Origin: a virus
Length of the DNA: 64,000 nucleotides
Strand: one strand, 5' to 3'
IMG/VR virus record: IMGVR_UViG_3300043395_004142
Position 1 is the first letter of the stretch; each line of letters opens with the position of its first letter. A program made the position numbers and the translations under genes. Shown piece by piece: positions 5,950-60,129 of the stretch. A model generated the notes under the pieces. That model did not search any database and was not told the origin of the DNA. It was given only the letters and a program-made list of their open reading frames with translations.

Positions 5950-6226
5950 CGCCTCGCCTTTCCCACGTTAGGTGTGCTATAAAAAATCGCGACAAGCAAG
6001 GTTTGCTTCTGAAATCCAAGCACCTTGCAGACCTGATCCCATCAGCCCTTAGGGATGAGCCTGTACGTTCCCGGATAACACATTGGCTCCCGAACCCGCC
6101 CCTGCGAAGGCGGTAAGCACGGAGCCATGGGAGGCGTTGATCCCGTCCCTCGTGTAACCTGTCCTACCTCTGGTGACCCCAAAGAAAGTTTGGGATCCCT
6201 TCCCGTTGGGGATCGTAGAGAAGGGC

Positions 6227-7549: not shown

Positions 7550-7593
7550 TAAATACAGGGACTCTTCAACGACCCTAGGTGTAAGGGACGCAC

Positions 7594-7947
7594 ATGAAAA
7601 AAGATCGTCTTGTGTTGGTCGATAAGGCGTACCATTTCAGCATCAAATGGTACTTGGCGGAGGAACATGATTTCGGCGCCACCCTTGGAGAAGACAGCCG
7701 CCCTCCTAGCTCGAAACCCCCCGCGGACCGTGGAGACTGGGAACATTGGGCAGCTAACAAGGCTCTATGGGAGATGCAGCCCCGGCCACGTAGGAACAAG
7801 GAGGGGTTCTACTGGGACACACGTGCCGAGGCCATGAGGGCCCTAGCTGTTGTCAAGGAAGTGATGAAGCAGGGCAGACCCATGCCTGAATGGGCCCAAA
7901 AGGCCCTGGCTGAAGGGTGGAAGCCGCCGAAAGGTTGGAGAGCATGA
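7594..7947 (+). CDS. hypothetical protein
   Basis: 117-aa ORF. Its stop overlaps the next start (ATGA at 7944). Confidence 0.45.
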   Translation: MKKDRLVLVDKAYHFSIKWYLAEEHDFGATLGEDSRPPSSKPPADRGDWEHWAANKALWEMQPRPRRNKEGFYWDTRAEAMRALAVVKEVMKQGRPMPEWAQKALAEGWKPPKGWRA

Positions 7948-8732
7948 ACGTCTGTTACCCTTTTGGTGGCCGGCACGTTGTGCTTCACTGGTGGAGTCAC
8001 AACATGCAATGGAGGGCAGCCCTTGCACGCTCCGAAGAGAGCTTATTTGTAGTCGCTCAACGGATCGCACAGGAGCATAAAGACGCTAAGGTCGGGGCTT
8101 ACCTTGACGTGGACATCGTTGCGCCCCCAGCGCACTTCGATAGTCTTATCGCGGCCTATGAACGGAAGGAGAAGCTTGTCAACTTCCGACAAGAGGTCTG
8201 CTGGCGGCTGAAAGAGGCCCTTCAAGCTGGGCACTCACTACCGCCACTTTTCTCACTGTGCCCTGAGGAGGAACACTACGATTGCGAGGGATGCACGCAA
8301 GGGATCAGGGCATCAATCTCCAAAGAGGAGCTTTACGAACGCTACGCGAAGGCGTGGCCCAAAGACAAGCGCCCTCAAAAGTCCCTTGTGGATTCGAAGT
8401 TCGTCCCGTCGCGAGCCCCGGTAGCGAAGGAAAGGGAGCCTCTTTCCTTCGCGCGGGCTGACTTCGGTCATCATTCACACGGGATACTCTTGGAAGAGGT
8501 CCCACCGAACATTGAGCTGGGACCTTACCGCCCAACGTTCCTCACGGGCGCCCTTTTCTTCTACCACGTCATCGAAGCCAAGAGCACCCATCCCTTACAG
8601 GCCATCTTCGACGACGTACATCGCAAGGAGGAGGAACAAAAGAAGGCTATAGAAGAGGGGCGACGCGCCGCTTACAGACGGGAGAAGGAAGAACGTATCC
8701 AAGCCGTGCTCGCAGTGTTCCGCCCCGGGTGA
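7944..8732 (+). CDS. hypothetical protein
   Basis: In-frame ATG at 7944 overlaps the upstream stop. 262 aa, non-biased, with a K/E-rich C-terminus. Confidence 0.5.
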   Translation: MNVCYPFGGRHVVLHWWSHNMQWRAALARSEESLFVVAQRIAQEHKDAKVGAYLDVDIVAPPAHFDSLIAAYERKEKLVNFRQEVCWRLKEALQAGHSLPPLFSLCPEEEHYDCEGCTQGIRASISKEELYERYAKAWPKDKRPQKSLVDSKFVPSRAPVAKEREPLSFARADFGHHSHGILLEEVPPNIELGPYRPTFLTGALFFYHVIEAKSTHPLQAIFDDVHRKEEEQKKAIEEGRRAAYRREKEERIQAVLAVFRPG

Positions 8733-34916: not shown

Positions 34917-35540
34917 TCACCCGGCCGCTGACGCCTTCTTCTCCCGCCCCCTGCGCTTATAGATACCCTTTACAATGTCCAGGTAAGGATCGAGCATGTA
35001 GAAGTTTGACCAATCACAGATAGGGATAACCAGGTGATCTCCCCATCCGGCTGAATCGATCGCGTCCCAGATCCGTCCTCTCTGGTCCCACTGCCTCTGG
35101 CTGATGTGCGATGGTCGGTCCGTATTGTTCCAATAGGCATAGTCCTCAAGACGCTTGTCTCGTTTGAGAAAATCCAGCGCCTTACACATCAAAGAGTCGC
35201 AGTGAGGTATAACGTAGAGGCGGTCAGCGTGCTCGCGAATAGCCACGCACACATCAAAGTTGAAGGTGTCGCGTTCAAGCTTGCCGAGCTGAGCGCGATA
35301 CATCTCACGTATAGCGTTTCCAACTATGCGTAACCGGGCTATTTCTTCGTCACCGTTATAGACGGCCAAGGTCTTCTGATATGCCTCGGACTTGGTATCA
35401 ACCCCGTCCAGCATAGTCTTATACAACTTGACCAACTCCTTCTTGACGTTCTCCTCACCCCTCCGCCGGGTATCTCGAACGAAAGGCCATAAGTGGCGAG
35501 AGTCCTTGAGCCGGTAAGCGACATAGATCTTTGTGGACAT
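34917..35540 (-). CDS. hypothetical protein
   Basis: 207 aa, non-biased. Confidence 0.5.
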   Translation of the reverse strand: MSTKIYVAYRLKDSRHLWPFVRDTRRRGEENVKKELVKLYKTMLDGVDTKSEAYQKTLAVYNGDEEIARLRIVGNAIREMYRAQLGKLERDTFNFDVCVAIREHADRLYVIPHCDSLMCKALDFLKRDKRLEDYAYWNNTDRPSHISQRQWDQRGRIWDAIDSAGWGDHLVIPICDWSNFYMLDPYLDIVKGIYKRRGREKKASAAG

Positions 35541-35637
35541 AAAGGCTCATTACACCGAGCCGCTGATTCTGCCCGAAAAGTCCTTTAGTGTGCCCGTTTG
35601 TCGGGCAGTCGGTGTATTTGGAGGGCAGCGAGATCCC

Positions 35638-37077
35638 ATGAAGCGTTCGCGGAAACTCTACGTCCACGAGGAAGTCAACGAGGGGAAGATATCCTCTCTC
35701 GACGATCTCCACGTCGAATACCGTCGCTACCTCCAAGCCTGCATCGATGCGATGCTCGCCGCTCATCGAACCATCATCTCTCGCAAGGATCTCCTCGACT
35801 TCTTCCCACCCGAGTCCGTCCTCTCCACCAACATCGTCGCGGCCTGCCAACAGCACGCCGTCGCGATCGTCTCCGGGTGGGCTATCTCTCGCTATACGAA
35901 TCACGTCAAGAAGGCGATCCAACGATTCGCTCGTGAGGACGTCATCGACGAACCCACGAAGATCCAGCTCTTCACAATCGGAAAGTACAACCTCGACAAG
36001 CCCACCAAGACCATCTCCCAAGAGGCGCTCGACCTCTATTGGACGCTTTTGCTCGACGCCGGGAAGGCCCCGACGGTTTCAAGTCGTGTTGGGATCCGAA
36101 CCTCGATCCATACGAGCGATCTCCGACTCAACGAAGACACCTCACTGACTCCCTGGTGGCTGGGGTTCTCCGGCCTCGCAAAAGGCAAGAGAACGTGGCT
36201 TCCTCTCAAAGCCAATCCGTTCGTGAAGTCACCCAAAGATGTCACGAAGGGATGTCTCCTCAAACGAGATCGAAAGGGGAGATGGCGCGTCGAGGTCGTC
36301 GAGACGAAAGAGTACGAAGTCCCCGATCCGCTTCCCGACGCGCCTCGTCTCGGGATGGATGTTGGCCTCAACGTCATCGCTGCGACGAGTGACGGGCGAC
36401 TCTTCGGAGAAGCGGTCAAATCCAAGTTTGACGTTCTCTACGGGAAGATGCGATCGACGCGAGCGAACCGACAGAGACAGGGATTGAAAGAGAACTCGGC
36501 GAGGTTGGATAGCCTCGAAGACCGTTTGAGCGGGTTCATCAAGACCGTCACGGGAACGATCGCGAACGATCTGATCAAGAGTCACCCTGCACATGTCTTC
36601 GTCCTAGAGGATCTCGATCTTCGGGGGTGTCGCGGGCAGAAGAGGTTCGCCTATCGAGCGCTTCATCGTGCGTTGAGTATGAGGACACTCACGATCGCGA
36701 TAAACGCGGCGTACACGAGTCAGATGTGCCCTTCTTGTGGGTACGTCTCGCGAGGGAACCGAACTGGAGTCAGGTTTATCTGCCGCAGTTGTGGCAGGAA
36801 AAGTCATGCGGATGTGGTGGGAGGGATCAACGTGCTCGGACGTTCCGAGGACACACACGTTGGTCTCGACGATCATCCTTCCGAAGTGAAGGCTTTGTTA
36901 AGAGAGCGATACCGCGCACGTAGGCGGGACAGTTCCTCAAGAGAGCCCGAAGTAACCGCGCTGCTAGCTTGCAGCCGAAGGCTTACTACGCGGGGATCTC
37001 CCTCGGGAGACACGCGCACAGCCTTGAACGCCTATGGTATTTCTCGGGCAGTCCCACCTCTTGGCGGGCACCCGTGA
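35638..37077 (+). CDS. tnpB: TnpB-like RuvC nuclease (IS200/IS605 OrfB, IS1341-type)
   Basis: RuvC-I GMDVGLN, RuvC-II VFVLEDLDL, zinc finger AYTSQMCPSCG...CRSCG, and RuvC-III HADVVGGINVL are present. GGAGGG sits upstream of ATG 35638. Confidence 0.8.
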   Translation: MKRSRKLYVHEEVNEGKISSLDDLHVEYRRYLQACIDAMLAAHRTIISRKDLLDFFPPESVLSTNIVAACQQHAVAIVSGWAISRYTNHVKKAIQRFAREDVIDEPTKIQLFTIGKYNLDKPTKTISQEALDLYWTLLLDAGKAPTVSSRVGIRTSIHTSDLRLNEDTSLTPWWLGFSGLAKGKRTWLPLKANPFVKSPKDVTKGCLLKRDRKGRWRVEVVETKEYEVPDPLPDAPRLGMDVGLNVIAATSDGRLFGEAVKSKFDVLYGKMRSTRANRQRQGLKENSARLDSLEDRLSGFIKTVTGTIANDLIKSHPAHVFVLEDLDLRGCRGQKRFAYRALHRALSMRTLTIAINAAYTSQMCPSCGYVSRGNRTGVRFICRSCGRKSHADVVGGINVLGRSEDTHVGLDDHPSEVKALLRERYRARRRDSSSREPEVTALLACSRRLTTRGSPSGDTRTALNAYGISRAVPPLGGHP

Positions 37078-39932: not shown

Positions 39933-41951
39933 GTGCCCATCTCCACACCCCTTAGGATGGCACGGTACGCCGAGACTTATGCGACCTATGTAGGCATGAG
40001 CACAGCTTTTCGTGTCGCGCACCGGTATCTGGCCGCCGCAAAGTATGACCACATTGACTTCAAACCACCGAAAAGCGTTGCCGAAACAGCGGCAAAAGGC
40101 TTGGAGTACCGCAAGAAGCAGACTGACAAAGCCGGTCTAACCCCCTCGGAAGCCTCGAAAGAGGGCATTGGTTCTGGGGTGCAACGGGCGGTGAATCTGA
40201 AAAACCGGGACAATGTGAGCCCCGAAGTTATCCGTCAAATGAGTGCCTTCTTTGCAAGGCACGAAAAGAACAAGAGCATCTCCCCCGAGCATCGCAATGA
40301 GCCGTGGAAAGACAAAGGCTACGTGGCTTGGTGCCTTAAGGGGGATACGGACGTTCTCTTGGCCGATGGAACTTGGCTACCTATCTCCAAGATCGTTGAG
40401 GACAAGCTGAGTGTGAGGGTCTGGTCCTACAATGAGGCGACCAAGACCTTTGAACCGAAAAAAGTGGTCGGATGGAGTGTTGCCCCCGCAAGCCTTGAGG
40501 ACTTCTACATCGTCGGGAAGCACAAGACAATGCGGCAAGGTATCAGTGATCGCACTTTTCTGGCCGCTACCGCCGAACACCCATTTTACGTAGAGGGGGA
40601 ATGGGTTGAGGCTAAGGACATGAAAGGGCGTGTTCTTAGCATCGTAGATCGGGGCCTGGACCCGATCTCGGAACAAGTCCTTCTCGGTACCCTTCTTGGA
40701 GATGCTTACATTTGGAAGTCTAGTGACAGTGCGGGCACGCTTCGCATGGCCCACGGGTCTGACCAACGAGAATACCTGCATGAAAAAACTCGCCTACTAC
40801 ACCCGTTAGTCTGTAGTCAGTTTGACACTCCTAACGAGAGTGGTTTTGGGCGAATGGGATTGGTAAAGTGCTGCACTTATACGGCAAGCACGCTCTACCT
40901 AAGTTACATCCGTGATCGTTTCTACGACGAGGAGGGTGTCAAGAGAGTTACCCCCACACTATTGAGGTCACTTGAAGACGTTGGAGTAGCCTTTTGGCTC
41001 ATGGATGATGGGAAACTCAAATTCTCGGAGAGAGACGGCCACTCCTCATGGATTCTGCATACCGAAGGGTTCGATGAAGAAAGTGTCGAAAACATCGTAC
41101 AATTTCTGAGGGGCCGTTATGAAATAGATGCTCGCGCCCAAAGGCGGGAGAACACGGACGGATCCACCGTATACTTTACCGTAGAAGGTACTCGGAAGAT
41201 GATGGCTCGGCTAGCACCCTTCTTCCACCCCTCTATGCGCTACAAGCTACTACCCGAATACCATGACGTTCCTTACGTATTAGCGGATCATTCCCCAAAA
41301 AGCGAGTTGGTGCTGTGTCCCCAACCTGTGACTCGGTTTGGGAAAGCTACGGATGAATACACAAGCAAGGCCGCTCGGAAGCCGTATAAATGGGAGTGGC
41401 GGTATAACCTTGAAGTGGAAGGCAACCACAACTTCATCGCCAATGGGGTGCTGGTTCACAACTGCCTTTGGGGCGGAGACCCTGGCAAAGCCTGGGCGGA
41501 CAAGATCAAAAAGCAGATGGAGGCCGCCGACCAAAAGACCGCGTCCCTTGGTGCAGGGGCCCTCACCCATGAATTGATGAACGATCTGGCTTCCGCCTAC
41601 CGGGGCAAGCGTATGCGCGATGCTATCCGTGACATGGAGCTTGCCGAGGTGCCCCAGGTAATGGCCGAAGAAGTCTACCGCAAGGTAGGGCAACACGCCG
41701 ATGAGGTTCGCGGTAACCTCCACCGTCTTCTCTCAGGCGTGCGAGTCGAATTCGAAGGAGGAGACCGGCCTGGCTGGGTCTGCTCCGACGAAACCGGCAC
41801 CATCTTCGTCCCGGCAGACGGAAGCCCTCCTCCACACGGAGGCTCGATCGCTCTTCGATCTGTAGCGGGCGCTATGCACGAATGGTGCAAAACCGATGTC
41901 CTGAGATATGGTGGTGCGAATCTCACAAAGATGATGAAGTCCACGGAGTAA
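39933..41951 (+). CDS. hypothetical protein interrupted by a LAGLIDADG intein
   Basis: Exteins total about 295 aa (res 1-133 and 511-672). Predicted spliced junction: ...KDKGYVAW|CLWGGDPGKAWADKI. Confidence 0.6.
   Translation: MPISTPLRMARYAETYATYVGMSTAFRVAHRYLAAAKYDHIDFKPPKSVAETAAKGLEYRKKQTDKAGLTPSEASKEGIGSGVQRAVNLKNRDNVSPEVIRQMSAFFARHEKNKSISPEHRNEPWKDKGYVAWCLKGDTDVLLADGTWLPISKIVEDKLSVRVWSYNEATKTFEPKKVVGWSVAPASLEDFYIVGKHKTMRQGISDRTFLAATAEHPFYVEGEWVEAKDMKGRVLSIVDRGLDPISEQVLLGTLLGDAYIWKSSDSAGTLRMAHGSDQREYLHEKTRLLHPLVCSQFDTPNESGFGRMGLVKCCTYTASTLYLSYIRDRFYDEEGVKRVTPTLLRSLEDVGVAFWLMDDGKLKFSERDGHSSWILHTEGFDEESVENIVQFLRGRYEIDARAQRRENTDGSTVYFTVEGTRKMMARLAPFFHPSMRYKLLPEYHDVPYVLADHSPKSELVLCPQPVTRFGKATDEYTSKAARKPYKWEWRYNLEVEGNHNFIANGVLVHNCLWGGDPGKAWADKIKKQMEAADQKTASLGAGALTHELMNDLASAYRGKRMRDAIRDMELAEVPQVMAEEVYRKVGQHADEVRGNLHRLLSGVRVEFEGGDRPGWVCSDETGTIFVPADGSPPPHGGSIALRSVAGAMHEWCKTDVLRYGGANLTKMMKSTE
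40332..41462 (+). mobile_element. intein (377 aa) with LAGLIDADG homing-endonuclease domain
   Basis: Block A CLKGDTDVLLADGTWLPISKIV. LAGLIDADG-like LLGTLLGDAYI and AFWLMDDGKL. C-terminal EVEGNHNFIANGVLVHN followed by +1 Cys. Confidence 0.8.
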
Positions 41952-48711: not shown

Positions 48712-49173
48712 ATGGCCGCGACAGTACCCATGACAGTTAGAGTCCCGGAGGCACTTCACGCAAAGCTCTCCGTGGAAGCAACGCGTCAGGGCCTCACAAT
48801 GAACGATCTCGTACGGCGCCTTCTTGAAGAGGGCTGCCAACCCACGGAGCCCAGCGGACCCGACAGCTCAGGTTTCTGCGCCATTCGGGGTGCGGGTCTT
48901 CTGTGGATGGGTTTTTCGCCGAACATCCGTTCGTGGCATCGCTTCCTTCTTTGCCAGCTCGACGGAGATGCGCGACTTGAAGTCGCGATCCCTATGGATG
49001 GTCCCACGGGACGTGACTTCGCGCTCAGGATCGTCCGCAAGCCTCTCATTGAGGCGCACGTCAACGAGAGTTGGTATCTTGCGACCACGGAGGTTGAGAT
49101 TCTCCTTGAACGACTGAAGATTAGAACGTCGGAGAAAATAGAAGAAGGGCTGCATCATGAATCTGCGAGATAG
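48712..49173 (+). CDS. ribbon-helix-helix (CopG/Arc-like) DNA-binding protein
   Basis: The N-terminus MTVRVPEALHAKLSVEATRQGLTMNDLVRRLLEEG is a typical RHH beta-strand plus two helices. Confidence 0.55.
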   Translation: MAATVPMTVRVPEALHAKLSVEATRQGLTMNDLVRRLLEEGCQPTEPSGPDSSGFCAIRGAGLLWMGFSPNIRSWHRFLLCQLDGDARLEVAIPMDGPTGRDFALRIVRKPLIEAHVNESWYLATTEVEILLERLKIRTSEKIEEGLHHESAR

Positions 49174-49384
49174 ACTCGAAGAGTTGGCCGTCAATTTCGG
49201 GGAGCAGTTGATCGCGACCATTCTCACCTGCCCCATCAGCGAGTTAGACGACGGAAGACCTACACCTAGGCTACCCACAGCTCGCAAGAGAGCCGCCAAG
49301 GCACTTCCCCCCAAGAGAGCCGCCAAGGCACTTCCCCCCCAGCGGAACATAAACATGCTCCCACCCCCCTCCAAATTACGCTGA
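49157..49384 (+). CDS. hypothetical protein with KRAAKALPP x2
   Basis: 75 aa. Contains a perfect 27-nt tandem duplication. Confidence 0.4.
   Translation: MNLRDRLEELAVNFGEQLIATILTCPISELDDGRPTPRLPTARKRAAKALPPKRAAKALPPQRNINMLPPPSKLR
49286..49339 (+). repeat. perfect 27-nt tandem duplication x2
   Basis: aagagagccgccaaggcacttcccccc occurs twice with no mismatch. Confidence 0.85.
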
Positions 49385-50109: not shown

Positions 50110-50139
50110 CATTTTCACGCGACTTACCGGGCAAAGTCC
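50110..50139 (+). promoter_or_regulatory. conserved motif copy (cattttca...gacttaccgggcaaagtcc) upstream of pyrB
   Basis: The core ttaccgggcaaag is identical to the copy at 62031. The 5' block cattttca matches cactttca there. It lies 39 nt upstream of the pyrB ATG. Confidence 0.45.
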
Positions 50140-50162
50140 ACCGCGGTGTAGAGGGGCCTGCG

Positions 50163-51086
50163 ATGGCTATCCTTCGGCACCTCATCTCAATCAACGACCT
50201 GACACCCGATGAAATCAAAAGTCTCTTCTTCCACGCGAACCTACTCCGAGGGTGCGAGCACCTCTGGGACCCCTTACAAAAGAAGCCCCTAGCCGGCAAG
50301 ATCCTCGCCTGCCTCTTCTACGAGCCCTCGACACGAACGAGCAGCTCGTTCATCGCCGCTATGGCACGCCTTGGAGGCACGGTCATCCCCATTACGCAGG
50401 GCGTCCAGTTCTCTTCTGTGTCGAAGGGCGAGACCCTGGAGGATACGATCCGCACCCTCGGACAATACGCCGACGCCATCGTCCTCCGGCACCCCGTAGA
50501 AGGATCCGCGAAGTCCGCTGCTGCGGTCTCCCCTGTTCCCGTGATCAACGCGGGCGACGGAGCCGGAGAGCACCCAACGCAGGCCCTCTTAGACCTCTTC
50601 ACGATGCGTGACGTGAAGCATGACCTCGAAGGAAAGACTATCGCCCTCGTCGGGGACCTCCTCTACGGGCGGACCATTCACTCCCTCGTGCGCCTCCTCC
50701 CACGAGAAGGCGCCAAGCTCATCCTCGTGAGCCCACCCGAACTACAACTCCCCATCGAGCTACGAAGCTTCGTACCTGCGGACACCGTAGAGGTCCATAG
50801 CCTCGGTGACGCCATCGAGCACGCGGACATCGTATACATGACCCGGGTCCAGAAAGAGCGCTTCCCCTCTCTGGAAGCCTACGAGCATGTAAAAGACGCC
50901 TGTGTACTCACGCGCGCCCTTATGCAGAGGGCCAAGCCCGATGCGGCCATCATGCATCCATTACCACGCGTAAATGAGATCGAACGCGAGATCGATGACG
51001 ACCCTCGCGCCGTCTACTTCACACAGGTCAGGAACGGCATGTTCGTTCGTATGGCCATCCTCCAAAGACTCATCCAACAACAATAA
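50163..51086 (+). CDS. pyrB: aspartate carbamoyltransferase catalytic subunit
   Basis: EPSTRTSSSF (STRT motif), GEHPTQALLD (HPTQ) and MHPLPR (HPLP) are present. 307 aa. GAGGGG SD upstream. No pyrI follows. Confidence 0.85.
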   Translation: MAILRHLISINDLTPDEIKSLFFHANLLRGCEHLWDPLQKKPLAGKILACLFYEPSTRTSSSFIAAMARLGGTVIPITQGVQFSSVSKGETLEDTIRTLGQYADAIVLRHPVEGSAKSAAAVSPVPVINAGDGAGEHPTQALLDLFTMRDVKHDLEGKTIALVGDLLYGRTIHSLVRLLPREGAKLILVSPPELQLPIELRSFVPADTVEVHSLGDAIEHADIVYMTRVQKERFPSLEAYEHVKDACVLTRALMQRAKPDAAIMHPLPRVNEIEREIDDDPRAVYFTQVRNGMFVRMAILQRLIQQQ

Positions 51087-51137
51087 GACCCTAGCCCCAC
51101 GGACACCTCACAAATTCCTTGACTGCCAAGTGTTGCA

Positions 51138-51156
51138 TGTTGTACCACGTACAACA
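51138..51156. promoter_or_regulatory. operator-like palindrome tgttgtac-cac-gtacaaca
   Basis: 8-bp perfect inverted repeat with a 3-nt spacer. It lies 7 nt upstream of the XRE regulator ATG, and TTGACT sits 5 nt further upstream. Confidence 0.45.
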
Positions 51157-51162
51157 CTGGAC

Positions 51163-51537
51163 ATGAAAATGAGCGAGAGTGCACGTCGGGCCTTTGGTGA
51201 CCACGTGCGGCAACTACGAGAGGAGCGTCGTCGAATTGATGGCGCCTTCTCTCTGAGGAAGGTTGCGGAGAGGGTTGGTATCGAGCCGGGGTACCTGAGT
51301 CGAATTGAGAGGTGGGACGTAGACCCGCCCGCAGACGAGAAGATCATCGCGCTCGCGAACGTGCTTGGGGCGGACCCTGATGTCCTTCTCGCCATGGCAG
51401 GGCGCATACACCCGGATCTCGTCGAGATCATCGGAAGCAAACCAAGGTTCTTCGCAACACTGCTAAGGCAACTGAGGGATGCGCCGGATGAGCAACGCGA
51501 GGCGATTGCAGCCCTCGTGAGGGACGGTAATTGGTGA
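51163..51537 (+). CDS. XRE-family helix-turn-helix transcriptional regulator
   Basis: SLRKVAERVGIEPGYLSRIERW is a classic HTH_3 (Cro/CI) motif. The ORF track starts at 50974 inside pyrB; ATG 51163 is preferred. Confidence 0.65.
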   Translation: MKMSESARRAFGDHVRQLREERRRIDGAFSLRKVAERVGIEPGYLSRIERWDVDPPADEKIIALANVLGADPDVLLAMAGRIHPDLVEIIGSKPRFFATLLRQLRDAPDEQREAIAALVRDGNW

Positions 51538-51552
51538 GGAGAGAGGCTAATT

Positions 51553-52590
51553 ATGGCAACAGTAGAATTGAAGAACGACACACTCTGGTTCGAGTTCCCG
51601 GAAGTCCACGAAGATGCGAAACTCGGGATTGATCTTCAGCGCACACTGCGCATCCCGGATGACGGGAAGAAGTACAGCCTCCCGCCCGGACTAGGCAGCT
51701 TTCCGATGTGCCGTGTGGACGAGTACAAGGCAAACGCCCCAGCCTCGTGGATCGAACATGGTGGTATCATGATCCCCATGTATCAATCGGAAGCCATGTG
51801 GATTCGCTTCCAGCCAAGTCACACCTATGATCGTGACAGCGCCTATCCTTTCGCGATCAAAATCTCCACGGGCAAGGTGAGTGCAGTCACCGGCGAGACA
51901 TACCAAAAGGGGCTTAAAAAGGGCGACTATCTAGTTGCGCCCCTCCAACCATGGCTCGATGGGTACGTCGTAGAGAAGGGGCTCATCCGCCAGTTCGTGG
52001 CAACCCCCCTAGGGTCCGGCTTCAGCGCAGAGGCACAGATCACCGGGCAGGACATCCACGGCGGCATCCAAGTCGAAGTCATCCCGATGAAGAAGGAGAA
52101 CTTCGAGCGCCGATTCCCAAAGCGCAAACCCGTGCTCTACTCCACATGCGATTCCATCGAATACGAACGCGGTTTTGGTCCGTCTGCTGCGGCAGCGTCA
52201 ATCGATATGAGTCTCGCGCCCGGCGGTATGATGAAGCAGGAGATCTACGAAGACCCGTACGGACTCGAAGAGTGGGCCCGAGGGTACACAGCCCGGTGCT
52301 TCATCCACATTGCCAACTCTCTCGTCTGGAGTGCCATTACGGGCAAGCAGCCCCCGACGACGCCCCCGACGGCCAAGCAGTACACGAACGCGGGGCTCCC
52401 GTGGTTCGAATACTACAACGATGCGCTCAAGCACGTGAACGCGACCGACAAGCTCAAGGGCCTGAAGGGCGTTGCTGAAATGGGCAAAGAGAAGAAGATG
52501 CCCATGCTCCCGGAGAATGAGCCCGTCTCAGGTGAAAAGGTCGTCGTCCTCAAGGGCAAACCCAACGAAGTACGCCAGGGGACTTGGTGA
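51553..52590 (+). CDS. hypothetical protein, tandem paralog A (unknown family)
   Basis: 345 aa. About 50% identical to the next gene along its length: NDTLWFEFP, QRTLRIPDDGK.Y.LPPGLG.FP, QPWLDGYVVEKG.IRQFVA.PLG, GGIQ.EV.PMK.E.FER.F. GAGGAG SD. Confidence 0.6.
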   Translation: MATVELKNDTLWFEFPEVHEDAKLGIDLQRTLRIPDDGKKYSLPPGLGSFPMCRVDEYKANAPASWIEHGGIMIPMYQSEAMWIRFQPSHTYDRDSAYPFAIKISTGKVSAVTGETYQKGLKKGDYLVAPLQPWLDGYVVEKGLIRQFVATPLGSGFSAEAQITGQDIHGGIQVEVIPMKKENFERRFPKRKPVLYSTCDSIEYERGFGPSAAAASIDMSLAPGGMMKQEIYEDPYGLEEWARGYTARCFIHIANSLVWSAITGKQPPTTPPTAKQYTNAGLPWFEYYNDALKHVNATDKLKGLKGVAEMGKEKKMPMLPENEPVSGEKVVVLKGKPNEVRQGTW

Positions 52591-53618
52591 GGGAGCCTGC
52601 CATGACAAAACTCAATAACGATACCCTGGTCTTCGAGTTCCCCGACACACACCCCAACGCGCGCCTGACCATCGAGTTCCAGCGCACGCTACGCATCCCG
52701 GATGACGGGAAGGACTACCTTCTGCCTCCGGGCTTGGGTCGATTCCCCCTCCGCCTCGTGGACGACTTCAAGGATGAAGTGCCCTCGGAGTGGCGCGAAC
52801 ACGGGGGCGCTATGCTCCCTATATTCCAAAGCGAAGCCCTGTGGCTCAACTTCCGATCCGAGAACGTCCCGACTCAGGGGACCTACCCTTTCGCGGTCAA
52901 AGTCGCGGCGGGAAAGATGAGCGCGGTGACCGGAAGGCTATGGCAGTCGGGCCTCCATGAAAAGGACTACCTGATCATCCCGAAGCAACCATGGCTCGAC
53001 GGCTATGTAGTGGAGAAGGGCATCATCCGCCAGTTTGTCGCAGCACCTCTCGGAGCAGGCGTCACGGTCGAAGAACAGCTCACCGGTAAGGCGGAGTTCG
53101 GAGGTATCCAAATCGAGGTCTTTCCAATGAAGCGGGAAGCCTTTGAGAGGCATTTCCCAGTACAAGATCGCACCAATATTTCAAATAGGCGTGGGCTACT
53201 AAAATCCTGCGCTGTTCGTAGCAGATCCACATATGACATGGGACTCGCCGCAGGCGGTCGTATGAAGCAACAGATCTTTGAGGACCCCTATGAACTCGAA
53301 GACTGGGATGTTAGTCACAAGGCCCAGTCGAATCGCTGCTTCGTCCACCTTGCGAACTCTCTCGTCTGGAAAGCCATCACAAAACAGGATCCGCCCACGA
53401 CCCCATGCACATCGAAAGCATACTCCCAGGCGGGCTATCCATGGTTCGATTACTACGTCGAGGGAGCCCACGCCGTGAGCGCAACGTCAGCCCTCGAAGG
53501 TATCAAGAGCATCGGGGAGATAGCTCCTTTCCTCCTCCCTGAGAACGAGTCCGCAGTGCCGAAGGTCGTCAAAAACCTATCCCCCGGAAGTCCCATTCGG
53601 GACGGTAAATGGGCGTGA
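52584..53618 (+). CDS. hypothetical protein, tandem paralog B
   Basis: 344 aa. Its start overlaps paralog A by 7 nt. It has the same conserved blocks as paralog A. Confidence 0.6.
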   Translation: MVREPAMTKLNNDTLVFEFPDTHPNARLTIEFQRTLRIPDDGKDYLLPPGLGRFPLRLVDDFKDEVPSEWREHGGAMLPIFQSEALWLNFRSENVPTQGTYPFAVKVAAGKMSAVTGRLWQSGLHEKDYLIIPKQPWLDGYVVEKGIIRQFVAAPLGAGVTVEEQLTGKAEFGGIQIEVFPMKREAFERHFPVQDRTNISNRRGLLKSCAVRSRSTYDMGLAAGGRMKQQIFEDPYELEDWDVSHKAQSNRCFVHLANSLVWKAITKQDPPTTPCTSKAYSQAGYPWFDYYVEGAHAVSATSALEGIKSIGEIAPFLLPENESAVPKVVKNLSPGSPIRDGKWA

Positions 53619-53626
53619 AAAGGAGA

Positions 53627-53654
53627 AGGACTACGTATAACTACACGTAGTCCT
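53627..53654 (+). terminator. hairpin aggactacgt-N8-acgtagtcct immediately after paralog B
   Basis: 10-bp perfect stem 8 nt after the stop. A TATAAT-like hexamer lies 20 nt downstream. Confidence 0.4.
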
Positions 53655-53752
53655 TCGTAGGGGGATAACCCCTATAATTTGACCATTGAGTGCGTCACAA
53701 CCCATCACACAACCGAGCTACTGCCCCGGTGTAATAGCAACACCGAGGTATC

Positions 53753-54243: not shown

Positions 54244-56658
54244 TTACGTCCCTGTAACGCTCTTCCAGCCGGCTGTGGTCTTGAAGTAGATCTTGTTGTT
54301 TGCAGCATCCACTGCGATGGCTCCTTGAGGGGGCGCAGATGGGAACGAGCTATCACTGACTGCACCTGCGATGGCAGGGAGGACTGGAGCTTCGTTCGTG
54401 CGGTTACCGTGTATGAAGTCATCGGTTGAACTAGAGAGGACGAGCCCGCTCTCCATATTCATACCGATGTTGTCGAACACCATGTTATGAGAACTGAAGG
54501 TAGAGTCGCTTTGAAACATATATTTCAAGTGACCCGTCACGTCGCGCTCCGCAGAGTTCGCGGGATCCCCTGCGATGAAAGGTCGGTTCGCAACAAGGTT
54601 TCGACAGATGACGTTGTATGAGGAGGACTCCTCCTCCCAGTTGCACGATTCTCCATTTACTCCCGCGGCGTTCGTATAAGTAACCGACGTAGTAGTAGGT
54701 ACCGTCAGGATGGTGAAGACACCGTTATTCCCAGGGGATGGAGCCCCTGTAACCTTGATCTTCGCCCCCACGTCTGCGGCAGCTTGATCACCGGATGTAA
54801 GCATCAAGGTAATGGTTGATCCGCTCTTGGCGATCATCGCGGTGCCTGTCTTCGGGGTCTCGAAGTGGATCGCGGATCCAGAAGCGCCTGAGGAGTTATC
54901 CTTGTTGCAGTCAAGGATAGTATTCCCGTCAACCAGACTCCGGTAAGTACGCTTACGAACGCGAATGCCAGAGCGATCACACATCTCGACAATGTTGTTC
55001 TTCACCGTAACGTGAGAAGCACGGCTGATCGAGATCCCAATTCCATTACCGCCGCCCTCACCAGAACCAGTGCCCTTCACGTCCGCGGCACCTGTAGCGA
55101 TATTCTTGATGTGTCGAATGACGTTGCCTTCGACAACGCACCCAGAACCGATGAAAGTAGGTGCGGAGGATGAGGCATGGCCTATCTGGATGCCTCCAGA
55201 GCACCTTTCGATTGAGCAGCCCACGATGCGGCAAGACTTCCCACGCATTAAGATGCCGGCGTTGTCGCAGTTGCTAGCCGTGCACCCCATGATATGAACA
55301 CCCTCACACTCCGCGTGCGTGCTGAACGCAGCCGCGGTCGCGTGACTCACCACGATCCCAGAAACGACCATCCCGCGGACAACCCCGAAGCCGCTCACAG
55401 GAGAAGACGGCGCCGCCCACTGGCCCGTGTCGACCCCGTGCCGGACGCGAGAGATAACTGAGTCGGAGACCACGATGTTCTCGGAGGCGTTGCCCACGAG
55501 GATCCCGTACCCGTACTCCCCCGATGTACCAGAGAAGTCCCATAGGTCATGGATTCGACAATCGCGGACTTGCGTACTGACACTTGACTCAATGACAACC
55601 CCCGGGCCGTCATTGTTGTGGAGATAGACGTTCTCAACGGTCCCGTTGAGAACGCGCCTCATACTGATGAACGGCGGGGCCCCATCCCGCGTTCCGTCCG
55701 TTGCGAGCTGGAACATCTCCAGGTTGCGGATGGTCACGTTCTTTACGAACGCCATCCGATAAGCCCGAGCAAGATCCGTCACGAGATACTCGTCTCGTGC
55801 ACCCGCACCATAGAGTGTCAGAGTAGGACCCGACCAAGCTATCGAGCCGTTGTTCACATCTGTTCCGGTAAGCCCCGAACGAGGGTTATATAATGTGATC
55901 TGTGTGCCAGGCCCATTCACGGACAGAATGAGAAAGGTTCCATTCTGGTTCGAATTGCTGGCCCCAGAGATAGTGATTGTATACCCTACGTCGGTTACAG
56001 AGTTGAATCCGGACACGTTAGAGAGGGTGACCACCTTATTGGAGTAGGCCGTGATACTCGCCCCAGAGCCGTTCCGGTTGATGCCCTTGTTAACGACCTT
56101 GATATACTCACCACGCTTGCGACCCGAGAACGCCGTGTCCTCCCATAGAGCCTCGGAGAGTAGAAACAGGTAGTCGTCGCGTTGGATGGCATCCACGTCC
56201 CCGCTCGGTGACACCTTAATGGTCGTCTGACCATGAAAAGCATCAGCAGTCAGGTTGATCAGAGAACCAGTAGTTGCCCCTATGGCTCCGATGACGTGAT
56301 TGAGAGTGTTCGGGAAGGTAAGACCCGCTACTACCTTGGTCTTCCCCATCCCTGAGCCTTCCAGAGTGATGTTGTCCTTCAAGTTGACCATGTCCGTGTC
56401 GATCACGAACTGGCCTGGAAGGAGAAGCACGGTGCCACCGTGTTTCGAGCTATCAGTGGCAGCAGAGATCGCGTCGTTGATCTCCACCTCGTCCTGAACC
56501 CCATCGCACACGAAATCCGCCTGGCTCCCAGCCGGACCCACGGTCACGACGTTGTTTGGCCGGACCTTGGACGCCCAGATCGAGCCGTTCCAAAAGAGGG
56601 ACGGATTGAGCGGCGGGCCCGGCGGGGAGATATAGGGCATGGGGACGAGTCCTTTCAA
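54244..56658 (-). CDS. right-handed beta-helix (pectate-lyase-fold) tailspike-like protein
   Basis: 804 aa. Repetitive beta-helix rungs rich in G/N/S/T/V and Ile/Val (e.g. NNIVEMCDRSGIRV, GNVIRHIKN, ILMRGKSCRIVGCSIE). The N-terminal ~100 aa differ and may be a virion adaptor. Confidence 0.55.
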   Translation of the reverse strand: MKGLVPMPYISPPGPPLNPSLFWNGSIWASKVRPNNVVTVGPAGSQADFVCDGVQDEVEINDAISAATDSSKHGGTVLLLPGQFVIDTDMVNLKDNITLEGSGMGKTKVVAGLTFPNTLNHVIGAIGATTGSLINLTADAFHGQTTIKVSPSGDVDAIQRDDYLFLLSEALWEDTAFSGRKRGEYIKVVNKGINRNGSGASITAYSNKVVTLSNVSGFNSVTDVGYTITISGASNSNQNGTFLILSVNGPGTQITLYNPRSGLTGTDVNNGSIAWSGPTLTLYGAGARDEYLVTDLARAYRMAFVKNVTIRNLEMFQLATDGTRDGAPPFISMRRVLNGTVENVYLHNNDGPGVVIESSVSTQVRDCRIHDLWDFSGTSGEYGYGILVGNASENIVVSDSVISRVRHGVDTGQWAAPSSPVSGFGVVRGMVVSGIVVSHATAAAFSTHAECEGVHIMGCTASNCDNAGILMRGKSCRIVGCSIERCSGGIQIGHASSSAPTFIGSGCVVEGNVIRHIKNIATGAADVKGTGSGEGGGNGIGISISRASHVTVKNNIVEMCDRSGIRVRKRTYRSLVDGNTILDCNKDNSSGASGSAIHFETPKTGTAMIAKSGSTITLMLTSGDQAAADVGAKIKVTGAPSPGNNGVFTILTVPTTTSVTYTNAAGVNGESCNWEEESSSYNVICRNLVANRPFIAGDPANSAERDVTGHLKYMFQSDSTFSSHNMVFDNIGMNMESGLVLSSSTDDFIHGNRTNEAPVLPAIAGAVSDSSFPSAPPQGAIAVDAANNKIYFKTTAGWKSVTGT

Positions 56659-56889
56659 GGAACACGTCCCGCAAAAAGGCTATCGACCGACACTGACCGA
56701 TGTTAACGCCAGGGGTGATCTTCGGGAGCGGACCCCGTCATTGATCGGGGTCCCACGGCCACCCTCACGGTCAGCTTTATCGACGTCGAACCATTGCATA
56801 CCTGCCTCTACACCGTGACAGGAACTCGATCCCAAAAACATCTCTCTCGGTTGGGATCGTGGGTCGGATTCGTCGTAGGGATCCTCAAG

Positions 56890-59800
56890 ATGAAAAACCG
56901 TTACCCTGGCAAGTGCGGCAAATGCGGCGTCAACGTTCCCGTGGGTGCGGGTGACTGGACCGCGGGGGTTACCACCTGCGCTGCGTGTGGTGGTGCACCC
57001 AAGGCTGAGGAGAACCGGGTCCGGTTTACCCTCGCCGGGCACCAGGCGGCCGTGAAGCCCCTGGGTTACCTCGACAGTAAGTTCAATGACTACCGAGCGG
57101 CCGTGAATGGTAGCCGGTTCGACGGCAACACGAAGTCCTACCTTGTAGACTTCGACAAGGTCGCGAAGGTCGTTGCGGCGCTTCAAGCCGCCGGGTTTGT
57201 CGTGGATGTCTCTCCAGAGGTGGCCGCACGGGCACAGGCAAAGGCTTCTCAAATCCACGTCGATGTCGCAGGGGCGGATCTCCGAGCGGACAAGGCGGAT
57301 GAGATTCTCCGTAAGCGGGGGCTGTATCTCTTCCCATTTCAGCGGTCGGGCGTCAAATGGCTCGCCTCCCGTACCGGGGCCTTGCTCGCCGATGAAATGG
57401 GGCTCGGGAAAGCCCAGCCAATCTCCGAGCCCGTCCTCACTCCATCAGGTTGGCGTCCTATCGGGGATCTCCGTGTTGGAGACGAGGTGATTGGCTCAAA
57501 CGGTTTGCCTACCAGAGTTACGGGCGTGTTTCCGCAAGGCGCGAAGGAAATCTTCGAAGTCACCCTGACGGACGGTGCGAACACGAGATGTTGTGAGGAG
57601 CACCTGTGGAGCGTTCAAACGCCGAATGATCGATTCCGTGACGGAAAACATCGAGTTATGTCGCTCAAAAATATCATGGAGAGCGGGCTCCAACACACGT
57701 CTGGGTTTAAGTGGTTCGTACCGGTAGTCGAACCGGTTCAGTTCTCGGAGAAAGAATTTCCCGTGCACCCTTACGTGCTAGGAGCGCTCATCGCGAACGG
57801 CAATTTGGGAACTTCGACGCTTCACAGTGGTCAGGCTGAACAACGCTCGATGATGGCGCCTTATCTCCCGAATGGCTTGAGCTTTAACTTCTCGGAAGGT
57901 GTTACCTATCGCATTGCGACGGAACATGCTGGTGTCCCAAACCAGCTAACCCGATCGATTGAAGCGCTCGGCCTCCAATTCACCGAGAGTCACACCAAGT
58001 TCATCCCCGGAATGTACCTCTTCGGATCAGTACAACAACGCCGGGATCTGCTCGCTGGTCTTATCGACAACGACGGCACCATCTCCAAGGACGGCGCGAC
58101 CATCGAGTACAACACAGTGTCACCTCAATTGGCTAAAGATGTGGTCGCTCTTGTTAGATCACTAGGTGGATCTGCGTGGGTGTCAACTCGAATCCCGAAG
58201 TACACTTACAAAGGAGAGAAGAAAGAGGGGAAGGTCGACTATCGGATCCGTATGGCTCTTACATTCTGTCCCTTCCGAGTGTCTTGGAAGCTTGATCGAT
58301 ACGTGCCTCGGTCCAAGTACCCCCCGGCGCATGCAATTGAATCTATCAAACCCATCGGAACCGAAGAGTGTGTATGCATCTCTGTAGATGCTGCCGATCA
58401 TCTGTACGTGACCAAGGACTATATTGTCACGCACAACACGATCCAGGCGCTGATCTCGATCCCGGAGGGAGTCCCCGTGCTCGTGATCGGCCCCGCGGTG
58501 GCCAAGGGCGTATGGGCGCGTGAAGCCGCCAAGTGGCGCCCGGACCTCAAGGCCAACGTCCTCTCGGGGCGGGGTTCCTTCCGATGGCCCGAGCCCGGTG
58601 AGATCCTGATCACGAACTACGACATCCTGAGTGACCTCCCTGAGACCGAGGTGGCTCCGGCGAATGTCGTCGTGATCGCTGATGAGGCCCACGCGGTCAA
58701 GTCGACTAAAACAGGCCGAGGAAAGCGCTTCCGGGTCATCTCTACCCTTGCCCGCAAAGCTGGGGGGAAGGTTTGGCTTCTTACGGCAACCCCTCTCCTG
58801 AACAAGCCCACGGAGCTTTGGAGCATCCTTGGGGCGGCGGGCCTCTCGACCGAGGCTTTCGGATCGTGGAAGAACTTCGTGGGGGTCTTCAACGGGCACC
58901 AGGACGACTACGGGTATGTATGGGGAACTCCCGATCGTGAGGTTATAGGAGAGCTTCTGCGCAAGGTCCAACTTCGGCGCCTTCGCGCTGAGGTGCTTCC
59001 TGACCTGCCCACCAAGCAGTGGCGTGAGATCCCTGTCACCCTCGATAGCAGCACTCGTAAGCAGTGTGACAAGGTTCTGGAAGCCCTGGCCAAAGGTGCT
59101 TCGAAAAAGAAGGTCAAGGGATCAGACCTGACGGCGGAGCAAGCGGAAGCCTTGCTCACGGATCTCGGAGCTATCTCCTCCAAAGACTGTCCTGCGTTCG
59201 AGGAGATGGCGAAGGCTCGTGCCGCCTTGGCGAAAGCCAAAATCGAGGCGATGCTTCAAATCGTCGAGGAGTACGAGGAGCAGGAAGAACCCCTCGTGGT
59301 CTTCTCGGCCCACCGCGCCCCCATCGATCTCTTGGAGGGTCGTGAGGGGTGGGCGGTCATCACGGGTGATACTCGCCCGGAGGACCGCACGAAGATCGAG
59401 GATGCCTTTCAACGTGGAGAACTTCGGGGCATTGCTTGCACAATCAAGGCGGGGGGTGTAGCTATCACCCTCACTCGTGCTTCTCATGCGCTTTTCGTAG
59501 ATCTGGAGTGGACCCCGGCACTCAACGCGCAGGCGGAGGATCGGATCTGCCGCATCGGACAGTCGCGAGGGGTGATCATCACTATCCTTGTAGCAGATCA
59601 CCCCCTCGACATAAGGATCGCACAGCTTCTCGCTCAGAAGCGAGTCTACATTGAGGGGTCCGTGGATGCGGCCCGCTTGGTCAATGGGGTAGACCCTGAG
59701 ATTCCGGTCATGCCGGAGATAGACTTTCAGGCTCTTGCGGCCAAGGCCGCAGAAGAAGCCGAGAAAGCCGAGAGGGCACTTCTTGCCTCGAAGGAGCGTC

Positions 59801-60129
59801 AGGCCCTTTACGAGGCGGAGAAGGCAGCGGCACAGGCCGCTAAGCGTGCAATCCGTGAAGACTTGATGGCTCCCGGCCGTCGACCGGCGAAGACGGCTCG
59901 TGAGGAGTGGGCCGCGGAAGCTCTAGGGATCCTGGCGGGTATGGATCCGGATCGTGCCCGTGAGCAAAATGGGATTGGTTTCAATGGGGCAGATGGACAG
60001 ATGGGGCACAATCTTGCCCGTCAAGTGTATCTCGGTTTGACTGAGGCACAGTGGCAGCTCGCCTTGGAGATTTGCCCCAAATACTGGCGCCAGGTAGGTC
60101 GTCCCCCAGCAGAGAAAATTGAGTCATGA
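56890..60129 (+). CDS. SNF2-family DNA helicase with N-terminal zinc ribbon, interrupted by an intein in motif I
   Basis: CGKCG...CAACGG ribbon. LADEMGLGK|intein|TIQALI reconstitutes DEMGLGKT. Further along: DEAH-like VVIADEAHAVKS, LLTATPLLNKPTELWSIL and helicase-C QAEDRICRIGQSRGV. The ORF track offers an upstream GTG/TTG at 56794. Confidence 0.75.
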   Translation: MKNRYPGKCGKCGVNVPVGAGDWTAGVTTCAACGGAPKAEENRVRFTLAGHQAAVKPLGYLDSKFNDYRAAVNGSRFDGNTKSYLVDFDKVAKVVAALQAAGFVVDVSPEVAARAQAKASQIHVDVAGADLRADKADEILRKRGLYLFPFQRSGVKWLASRTGALLADEMGLGKAQPISEPVLTPSGWRPIGDLRVGDEVIGSNGLPTRVTGVFPQGAKEIFEVTLTDGANTRCCEEHLWSVQTPNDRFRDGKHRVMSLKNIMESGLQHTSGFKWFVPVVEPVQFSEKEFPVHPYVLGALIANGNLGTSTLHSGQAEQRSMMAPYLPNGLSFNFSEGVTYRIATEHAGVPNQLTRSIEALGLQFTESHTKFIPGMYLFGSVQQRRDLLAGLIDNDGTISKDGATIEYNTVSPQLAKDVVALVRSLGGSAWVSTRIPKYTYKGEKKEGKVDYRIRMALTFCPFRVSWKLDRYVPRSKYPPAHAIESIKPIGTEECVCISVDAADHLYVTKDYIVTHNTIQALISIPEGVPVLVIGPAVAKGVWAREAAKWRPDLKANVLSGRGSFRWPEPGEILITNYDILSDLPETEVAPANVVVIADEAHAVKSTKTGRGKRFRVISTLARKAGGKVWLLTATPLLNKPTELWSILGAAGLSTEAFGSWKNFVGVFNGHQDDYGYVWGTPDREVIGELLRKVQLRRLRAEVLPDLPTKQWREIPVTLDSSTRKQCDKVLEALAKGASKKKVKGSDLTAEQAEALLTDLGAISSKDCPAFEEMAKARAALAKAKIEAMLQIVEEYEEQEEPLVVFSAHRAPIDLLEGREGWAVITGDTRPEDRTKIEDAFQRGELRGIACTIKAGGVAITLTRASHALFVDLEWTPALNAQAEDRICRIGQSRGVIITILVADHPLDIRIAQLLAQKRVYIEGSVDAARLVNGVDPEIPVMPEIDFQALAAKAAEEAEKAERALLASKERQALYEAEKAAAQAAKRAIREDLMAPGRRPAKTAREEWAAEALGILAGMDPDRAREQNGIGFNGADGQMGHNLARQVYLGLTEAQWQLALEICPKYWRQVGRPPAEKIES
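57412..58437 (+). mobile_element. intein (342 aa) with two LAGLIDADG motifs, Ala at position 1
   Basis: Starts AQPISEPVLTPSGWRPIGDLRVGDEV (block-A-like). LGALIANGNLG and LLAGLIDNDGTI. Ends YIVTHN with +1 Thr, the T of GKT. Confidence 0.7.

Follow-up and report, generated by a model that had tools for sequence, protein, structure and literature searches.

An XRE-family regulator and a large protein of an unnamed family end in the same C-terminal motif in a putative mobile repressor-effector operon

In the HipB-HipA system, the gene for a small XRE repressor lies directly upstream of that for a much larger effector in a single operon with palindromic operators in its promoter. The C-terminal Trp of HipB is universally conserved and belongs to a tail that acts as a Lon degradation signal and has been seen in a surface pocket of HipA (PMC3376134). 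CapH-CapP, ImmR-ImmA and DdrO-IrrE combine an XRE repressor that has a C-terminal helical domain with a partner protein, and SinR likewise has its XRE domain at the N-terminus, followed by a helical domain on which a controlling partner protein acts. XRE-type C proteins, the small regulators of type II restriction-modification, have an operator within the promoter. They are translated from a leaderless mRNA, and in mobile restriction-modification systems their genes are transcribed together with that of a toxic effector (PMC2175313). Here, we describe an operon that resembles each of these systems in part, located in a 64-kb stretch of DNA (the window) in which a first-pass annotation had pointed to a self-contained uncharacterised system. 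Our analysis upholds this description, and neither of the two outcomes named in that annotation as refuting it came about. Our best explanation, held tentatively and at slightly less than even confidence, is a widespread, mobile and self-contained operon, a conflict module resembling those of type II toxin-antitoxin and abortive infection, with a HipB/HipA layout and with its two products coupled through their C-terminal tails. The regulatory architecture of the module is well supported by sequence comparison; its biochemical function we infer only.

The window copy is a three-gene cassette on the plus strand, downstream of pyrB (50163-51086; TIGR00670, E 1.4e-100), and all features originally named for it could be located. 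The module's own promoter contains a -35-like hexamer, TTGACT (51119..51124, plus strand), assigned by direct reading of the sequence and from homologous loci. An operator follows on the same strand (51130..51156), made up of a half-site-like GTGTTGCA (51130-51137) and a perfect palindrome, TGTTGTAC-cac-GTACAACA (51138-51156). Next come the 124-aa XRE-family HTH regulator, a predicted repressor (51163..51537, plus strand; Pfam HTH_31, E 1.6e-12), and, after a gap of 15 nt as first described, paralog A (51553..52590, plus strand; 345 aa), a member of a large unnamed family with the C-terminus ...EVRQGTW-COOH, for which direct reading gives a Shine-Dalgarno-like GGAGAGAGG (51538..51546, plus strand). 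Paralog B (52602..53618, plus strand; 338 aa) ends in ...PIRDGKWA-COOH. It had been taken to overlap paralog A by 7 nt, from an alternative TTG start at 52584, but the ATG at 52602 is the more likely start, which leaves a gap of 11 nt and no overlap: a Shine-Dalgarno-like GGGAG is read directly upstream (52591..52595, plus strand), this start agrees with the N-terminus of the family in alignment, and gene calls made independently for identical contigs use it as well. The terminator hairpin reported behind the cassette is present, but begins 6 nt rather than 8 nt past the stop codon of paralog B and has a stem of 12-14 bp rather than 10 bp. It is the first of two hairpins at 53625..53675, a feature to which we assigned no strand. 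The first (53625-53656) forms a 12-bp stem on the plus strand and 14 pairs followed by a T-rich tail on the minus strand, on which it scores as a terminator; the second is GC-rich (53658-53675) and has TAATTT directly after it. Together, they probably constitute a bidirectional transcription stop.

The palindrome beside TTGACT had been called operator-like, and comparative data strongly back this call. Within the 64-kb window it is the sole match to itself, even when 3 mismatches are allowed (0.08 expected by chance), and it overlaps the presumed -10 element and transcription start of the regulator's promoter. The sister element L103 has TGTTGTA-tggcg-TACAACA in its place, bacterial loci carry (GTGTAGT)GTGTAGTA-ta-TACTACAC at the corresponding position, and homologous loci have TTGACA or TTGAC where the window has TTGACT relative to the operator. 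A layout of TTGACA-spacer-GTGTAGTAtaTACTACAC-ATG is conserved across phyla. Scanning for consensus promoters did not yield a full sigma-70 match at the window TTGACT because the -10 element is weak. Strong palindromes (score >=7) were present in 46 of the 74 loci scored, at a median distance of 2 nt from the start codon. The start codon of the regulator follows the operator at 0-6 nt (0-5 nt in the bacterial loci), a spacing that implies a leaderless mRNA, and the regulator is thus probably translated from a leaderless or near-leaderless transcript; the large gene has a Shine-Dalgarno site of its own, an SD-like motif being found 3-12 nt upstream of it in 156 of 163 homologous loci. The operator is unique within the window and within each locus, and about 104 of 120 metagenome stretches containing the exact operator 18-mer (~87%) lie at module promoters, so that scans of the window, each locus and the metagenome occurrences gave no support for a dispersed regulon. 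At the module operator, the regulator is predicted to act as an autorepressor.

Co-occurrence with a regulator, which the first-pass annotation had proposed to check by a neighbourhood search, is the rule. Clustering placed an XRE regulator (~118 aa in the bacterial loci) directly upstream of the large gene, in the same orientation, at 75 of 79 bacterial loci, and six-frame checks brought this to 78 of 81; the gap between the two genes has a median of 19 nt. Among 120 operator-seeded metagenome loci, the pair is present in 86, most others being cut by contig ends. The linkage extends to divergent members of the family, namely 12 of 18 IMG/VR loci, Euzebya pacifica, which has a single-copy module (WP_114594674 with the large protein WP_114594673), and an insert-bearing subfamily. 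No neighbour other than the regulator/large-gene pair is conserved in the bacterial loci, and there is no conserved cargo operon downstream. At least eight intact large genes (L024, L068, L083, L088, L093, L097, L098 and L101) have no XRE partner, and in a further locus (L092) the upstream partner is a non-XRE protein with a zinc ribbon and a weak RHH-like match that still ends in the module's tail, as KKVRTGKW. The typical bacterial locus has a single family gene directly behind the regulator; the ancestral unit has one effector, and the shape first suggested for the system, a regulator plus a duplicated effector, does not hold.

The duplication itself is confined to the window lineage and to L103, where the ortholog of paralog B is 64% identical. 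Paralogs A and B share 52% identity (E 8e-127), in line with the earlier estimate of about 50%, and contain the conserved blocks quoted with it. A reading of either paralog as a degenerate copy is excluded, since 105 of the 113 positions that are highly conserved in the family are retained in both. In the window lineage, the effector looks to have been duplicated long ago with both copies kept intact, possibly as a hetero-oligomer.

The paralogs had also been labelled ORFans, which is wrong: they belong to a very large family, without a name, that comprises over 7,000 clusters at 90% identity and 4,667 at 50%, carried by at least 592 GTDB species and spanning many bacterial phyla, megaplasmids, large phages and viral contigs, with complete carrier genomes such as CP070666.1 and cultured carriers including Euzebya pacifica, Stieleria tagensis, Streptomyces chartreusis, Bosea and Bradyrhizobium. 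Among PLSDB plasmids the family is rare (6 records). Its distribution is patchy and incongruent with phylogeny, and identity within a phylum (60-64%) is scarcely higher than between phyla (53-61%). The 139 flanking genes fall into 106 Pfam families; they are housekeeping genes unrelated to one another and show no defence-island enrichment. One module copy is inserted in a ribosomal-protein gene cluster, between the L36 gene and a 63-aa gene that follows a methionine aminopeptidase gene and is probably an unannotated infA. These data are best explained by a horizontally mobile module, the window copy of which is carried on a phage-like element. Mobility and patchy occurrence in unrelated contexts are traits of type II toxin-antitoxin systems, as is the two-gene operon order with a small gap and a conserved operator over the -10 element and start, at which the regulator would repress.

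The first-pass annotation could place the paralogs in no family, and library, PDB and fold searches likewise matched no characterised one. Neither paralog has a Pfam or NCBIfam match at E<=1 or a meaningful PHROGs match; in PADLOC-DB v2.0.0, no family, and thus no known defence protein model, was matched by either at E<=1. A PDB sequence search with the large protein returned no match even at E 10, and a fold search with its model found no relative among solved structures. No papers were found in a literature search on the family's sequence motifs, and for divergent multidomain members the sources offer no names. Structural relatives of the large protein do occur in giant viruses of eukaryotes, including Harvfovirus and Hyperionvirus, where they are also uncharacterised, and one of these, from Hyperionvirus, is named 'Ubiquitin-like domain-containing protein' in UniProt. 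The large protein is a cytoplasmic, beta-rich protein of ~345 aa. An alignment of 27 sequences has a mean column identity of 66% and 83 invariant columns, with many invariant polar residues, including H19, H252, D36, E80, D136, K108 and T31. Associations with proteostasis were seen in C-terminal VWA fusions (few or single cases) and in a ClpP gene directly upstream of the large gene in L088.

For defence or anti-defence, also suggested at first, we found no support: the flanks are ordinary housekeeping genes and the large protein is without a PADLOC match. An ordinary cellular function of an enzyme, binding or structural protein, locally repressed by a dedicated XRE regulator and with no role in conflict, would fit these flanks, the very strong purifying selection, the intact copies that occur without a regulator, and the giant-virus relatives, which suggest a target that is not specific to bacteria. 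We nevertheless judge it unlikely, given the patchy, phylogeny-incongruent distribution, the effectively random contexts, of which the ribosomal-protein gene cluster is one, and the fact that the unit brings along a promoter and an operator of its own; nor does it explain a tail shared with the repressor.

This tail is found at the end of both proteins, which terminate in V-R-[D/E]-G-x-[W/F]-COOH. The window regulator, whose XRE-family membership is supported by HTH_31 (48 bits, cut-off 27) and HTH_3 (28.6, cut-off 23), ends in ...LVRDGNW-COOH. All 120 listed regulator homologues have a [VI][RK][DN]GxW tail, with a few extra residues beyond it in two. Of 120 close homologues of the large protein, 116 carry the tail. 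The motif is almost exclusive to the module, with one stray among 4,329 ORFs of the bacterial loci and one loose match among 946 window ORFs. Its codons vary freely at third positions, which places the conservation at the protein level and rules out a DNA or RNA element. Profile-profile comparison of the two alignments found no homology between regulator and large protein beyond the short tail. An AF2 model of the regulator (pLDDT 90.9) comprises a five-helix HTH domain and three C-terminal helices, the last of which is capped by the motif, so that part of its conservation in the regulator could be structural; in the large-protein monomer model, the tail is of low confidence (pLDDT 48-58) and no docking site is visible. 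We know of no other regulator-effector pair with one common C-terminal motif.

Conceivably, the tail is a common degradation signal or docking motif for a conserved host factor, recognised by Lon, ClpXP or another reader rather than by the large protein, through which the two proteins are co-regulated by proteolysis. The tail of HipB, with its terminal Trp, is such a signal for Lon (PMC3376134), the tail is flexible in the large-protein model, and ClpP adjoins the large gene in L088. We consider this very unlikely, however, as the motif is almost confined to module proteins in the sequences examined, and a module spread over hosts as distant as these, viral contigs among them, would be expected to bring its reader along; moreover, this explanation could be combined with any other and excludes none.

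A second possibility is suggested by the regulator, almost the whole of which is covered by its match to the PADLOC capH model (E 1.1e-7). The pair might work as CapH/CapP, ImmR/ImmA or DdrO/IrrE do, with the large protein as a sensor or processing enzyme dedicated to the repressor. Activated by a signal, the large protein, for example a new peptidase cutting at or after the tail Gly, would inactivate the repressor, and the identical tail of the large protein would be a pseudosubstrate or auto-processing site. The tail common to repressor and partner, the many invariant polar residues and the loose proteostasis associations (VWA fusions, ClpP in L088 and the Hyperionvirus 'Ubiquitin-like' match) are in keeping with this proposal. 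Each association is a single case or few cases, however, and the paralogs match no peptidase family, contain no HExxH-type motif and have no fold match to peptidases or relative among solved enzymes. The loci also have no conserved adjacent cargo, and in the window, the loci and the metagenome the operator is essentially confined to the module, with no regulon visible, so that we find this proposal improbable. The module thus differs from CapH-CapP, ImmR-ImmA and DdrO-IrrE both in these respects and in its partner, which is not a Zn-metallopeptidase by sequence or fold. Equally doubtful is a related idea, in which the large protein founds a new fold and family across bacteria, large phages and giant viruses that acts on or through the C-terminal V-R-[D/E]-G-x-[W/F] peptide. 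The tail might then be processed or modified to expose a C-terminal Gly, as in the maturation of ubiquitin-like proteins, or the large protein might polymerise by donating its tail to the next subunit, with the repressor's identical tail as a cap.

In the coupled repressor-effector operon that we tentatively favour, the tail would serve for docking, and a single site would recognise it on both proteins; the most economical candidate is a pocket on the large protein. Repressor and large protein would then be physically linked, with the tail of the large protein as a competitor for this site, acting in cis to auto-inhibit or in trans to self-associate. The repressor would be both antidote and controller, and the large protein an effector that is freed or over-produced once the repressor is lost or titrated. 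Several observations speak against a conflict module: large genes that are intact but have no XRE partner would be uncommon if the product were an obligate toxin, conservation of the sequence greatly exceeds that of typical toxin-antitoxin pairs, the flanks lack defence-island enrichment and the large protein lacks PADLOC or PHROG matches, the family is rare in PLSDB, and the tail is poorly defined in the monomer model and may be partly structural in the regulator.

In layout, the module resembles HipB-HipA, with which it shares gene order, the relative size of the two genes, palindromic operators and a conserved C-terminal Trp of the repressor. Unlike HipA, the large protein has neither the HipA Ser/Thr kinase domain nor any other known domain; unlike in HipBA, the effector carries the repressor's tail, the regulator mRNA is apparently leaderless, and toxicity would have to be presumed. 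The apparently leaderless mRNA, the operator within the promoter, co-transcription with an effector gene and a PADLOC Control_protein match (E 3.3e-5) are reminiscent of C proteins, but the module encodes no restriction endonuclease or methyltransferase domain, and its regulator carries, in addition to the tail, a further C-terminal domain of 45 aa that is helical. Among solved HTH proteins, SinR is the closest in sequence (3qq6, E 2.5e-6), in an alignment restricted to the HTH domain; SinI is a small helical antagonist, in contrast to the 345-aa beta-rich partner found here.

A family of thousands of members without a name, a domain model or a structural relative among solved folds is a large annotation gap, and its promoter, operator, leaderless regulator and effector form a rigid unit of ~1.6 kb (with one large gene) that can be tested in any host. 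If this unit is a toxin-antitoxin or defence module, its effector would belong to a new class; otherwise, a widespread regulated function is at present annotated merely as 'hypothetical'. The shared tail, if it does work as a switch, would be of a new kind, in which a transcription factor and an effector compete via a common terminal peptide.

Downstream of pyrB (50163–51086; TIGR00670, E 1.4e-100), a 76-nt intergenic region of the window contains a −35-like TTGACT (51119–51124) and a perfect palindrome, TGTTGTAC-cac-GTACAACA (51138–51156), which occurs only once in the 64-kb window with 3 mismatches allowed (0.08 expected by chance). It precedes a 124-aa XRE-family regulator (51163–51537; HTH_31, E 1.6e-12) and two large proteins sharing 52% identity (E 8e-127), the first of which, paralog A (345 aa, 51553–52590), is preceded by GGAGAGAGG. 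The cassette features described in the first-pass annotation were all found in place, except that its 7-nt overlap between A and paralog B gives way to an 11-nt gap, since B aligns with the family only from ATG 52602, a start preceded by GGGAG and also picked in gene calls made independently on identical metagenome contigs. Two hairpins lie 3' of the last stop codon, one with a 12–14-bp stem (53625–53656) and one GC-rich (53658–53675); a terminator scan scored the former on the minus strand only, so it may work in both directions. An 804-aa minus-strand ORF (54244–56658) converges on the module; its counterpart in the identical contig L001 has only faint or weak matches to NosD and Beta_helix, making it at best a beta-helix protein.

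The cassette is real and uncharacterised, as had been proposed: the large protein has no match in Pfam, NCBIfam, PADLOC or PHROGs, nor in a sequence search of the PDB. An AlphaFold model, confident overall (pLDDT 81.7, pTM 0.83), predicts a beta-rich N-terminal part (residues 1–190), a disordered variable loop (195–217) and an alpha/beta C-terminal part. Its matches in BFVD were uncharacterised proteins of giant viruses, one from Harvfovirus (E 1e-20, TM-score 0.66 normalised to the query) and one from Hyperionvirus, named ‘Ubiquitin-like domain-containing protein’ (E 8e-9). The large protein is thus without recognisable relatives of known function.

The paralogs are, however, not the ORFans they had been taken for. 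Homologues of paralog A form more than 7,147 clusters at 90% identity, every one unnamed and without a Pfam domain, and a profile search for the family (E ≤ 1e-3) matched 4,667 clusters built at 50% identity. The family is encoded in at least 592 GTDB species genomes, and the 80 loci kept for comparison are drawn chiefly from Planctomycetota, Gemmatimonadota, Myxococcota, Verrucomicrobiota/Kiritimatiellia, Candidatus Obscuribacterales and Desulfobacterota. Members also occur on megaplasmids of cultured Euzebya, Bosea, Streptomyces, Miltoncostaea and Bradyrhizobium, in two large phages and on 18 IMG/VR contigs, mostly of 190–620 kb. Conservation is unusually high, with a mean column identity of 66% and 83 invariant columns in an alignment of 27 metagenomic homologues. 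Longer members have VWA domains, Sel1 repeats or DUF932 at the C-terminus, and one subfamily has a helical insert of ~85 aa behind the first hairpin. In the 197-kb Caudoviricetes Virus Rctr197k (KX853510.1), the family gene (4950–6058) is split and labelled ‘putative membrane protein’ or misc_feature, so it is probably frameshifted and misleadingly named; the 129-aa gene before it (4564–4953) has no Pfam match, hence no XRE partner is shown there.

GTDB loci carry one copy of the family gene each, and in 75 of 79 loci it is immediately preceded, on its own strand, by a ~118-aa XRE gene (median gap 19 nt). Six-frame searches raise this to 78 of 81, which bears out the co-occurrence with XRE regulators that the first-pass annotation had raised. 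No other neighbour family recurs across these loci. Their 139 flanking genes belong to ordinary metabolism (106 Pfam families) and include only three PIN-domain proteins, with no defence or mobile-element signal. Family identity within phyla (60–64%) is barely higher than between phyla (53–61%). A divergent copy encoding a 120-aa XRE protein and a 438-aa variant (4611–6317 in comparison locus L226, also in L227–L230) sits in the ribosomal-protein gene cluster of one organism, in the order secY, methionine aminopeptidase, a 63-aa unannotated gene (probably infA), the module pair, L36 and S13, with its own operator, GTGAGTAGTATATACTACTCAC, directly 5' of the ATG. Together, these data indicate a self-contained unit dispersed by horizontal transfer. 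On one 194-kb IMG/VR contig, a ClpP protease gene (7377–7970, E 1.6e-80) takes the place of the XRE gene directly upstream. In another locus, L018, the regulator is preceded by fragments of a second family gene (6786–6985) and separated from the large gene by an insertion of about 600 nt, which suggests a tandem copy in decay or a rearranged one.

The region upstream of the regulator has a layout common to loci of different phyla, in which a TTGACA-like −35 box is followed after ~17 nt by a palindrome, (GTGTAGT)GTGTAGTA-ta-TACTACAC, whose centre can be read as a −10 element (TATACT), and in most loci by the start codon 0–5 nt further on. The palindrome is strong in 46 of 74 scored loci, with a median of 2 nt to the start codon in those 46; the window and its sister element L103 carry a variant half-site, TGTTGTA, in an unchanged layout. 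This arrangement implies that the regulator mRNA would be leaderless or nearly so, and that the operator would span the −10 region and transcription start. An SD-like motif precedes the large gene in 156 of 163 loci. The exact operator 18-mer was found in 120 metagenome stretches, ~104 of them module promoters (86 with both genes on the contig) and the remainder unrelated palindromes in AT-rich sequence, so the scan gave no evidence of a wider regulon.

Regulator, A and B occur together only in the window's lineage (L001 and L002, one element) and in L103. Identity between window and L103 is 70% for A and 64% for B, against ~53% between A and B, so the duplication is an old one after which neither copy was lost. 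Of the 113 family positions conserved at ≥95%, A and B each preserve 105. The rest of the window contains many ORFs without matches, inteins, a TnpB-like gene, a DNA ligase and several PHROG matches, and resembles a segment of a large phage or similar element; neither a capsid nor a terminase gene was recognised in it. Three pyrimidine-biosynthesis-type genes, dihydroorotate dehydrogenase-like, amidohydrolase/dihydroorotase-like and pyrB, are scattered through this ORFan-rich, phage-like region (2001–3068, 3065–4111 and 50163–51086) and may serve a large phage as auxiliary metabolic genes. Two intein-containing genes (39933–41951 and 56794–60129) comprise a LAGLIDADG/Hint ORF and an SNF2-type helicase split by a homing-endonuclease/Hint insert, and a TnpB/Cas12f-like ORF (OrfB_IS605 and TNB domain) lies at 35533–37077. 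A 153-aa ORF (48712–49173) has a HicB domain according to the annotation of L001, with no obvious HicA partner called beside it, and a small ORF (49157–49384) contains a direct peptide repeat, ...RKRAAKALPPKRAAKALPPQR....

The most unusual feature of the module is a C-terminal tail shared by its two proteins. In every paired locus the regulator ends in ...VREVRDGxW and the large protein in ...QVREGxF or a VRE[FW]xx variant; in the window the tails are ...LVRDGNW (regulator), ...EVRQGTW (A) and ...PIRDGKWA (B). The motif is present in 120/120 regulator homologues and 116/120 close large-protein homologues, divergent members retain V-x-x-G-x-W, and outside both families the pattern occurs in 1 of 4,329 ORFs of bacterial loci and, loosely, in 1 of 946 window ORFs. 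Third codon positions of the tail vary freely, so selection operates at the peptide level. L092 has an upstream partner other than an XRE protein, with a zinc ribbon and a weak RHH-like match, yet this partner still ends in KKVRTGKW. The regulator model (pLDDT 90.9) has an HTH domain and three helices, with the motif predicted at the end of the last helix and in a four-residue terminus; in the monomer model of the large protein, its tail is flexible.

There is good support for a mobile operon under autoregulation, in which the XRE repressor gene is leaderless and a separate ribosome-binding site serves the effector gene. The shared tail would couple the two proteins or place both under one reader, and the module may act as a toxin–antitoxin-like or abortive-infection-like conflict element. 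The nearest layout is that of HipB/HipA, including the conserved terminal Trp of HipB (PMC3376134), and C-protein operons, in which a leaderless controller is co-transcribed with a toxic effector (PMC2175313), offer a precedent for the arrangement. Against a classical toxin speak intact copies that lack the partner, conservation that is extreme, and surroundings that do not resemble a defence island; a plain regulated cellular function is a rival reading, as is a repressor paired with a processing enzyme in the manner of CapH/CapP, which a match to the capH model favours. What had appeared to be a curiosity of a single element is instead a large family in which partner and operator are fixed and a terminal motif is shared, and the module is more general than first supposed.
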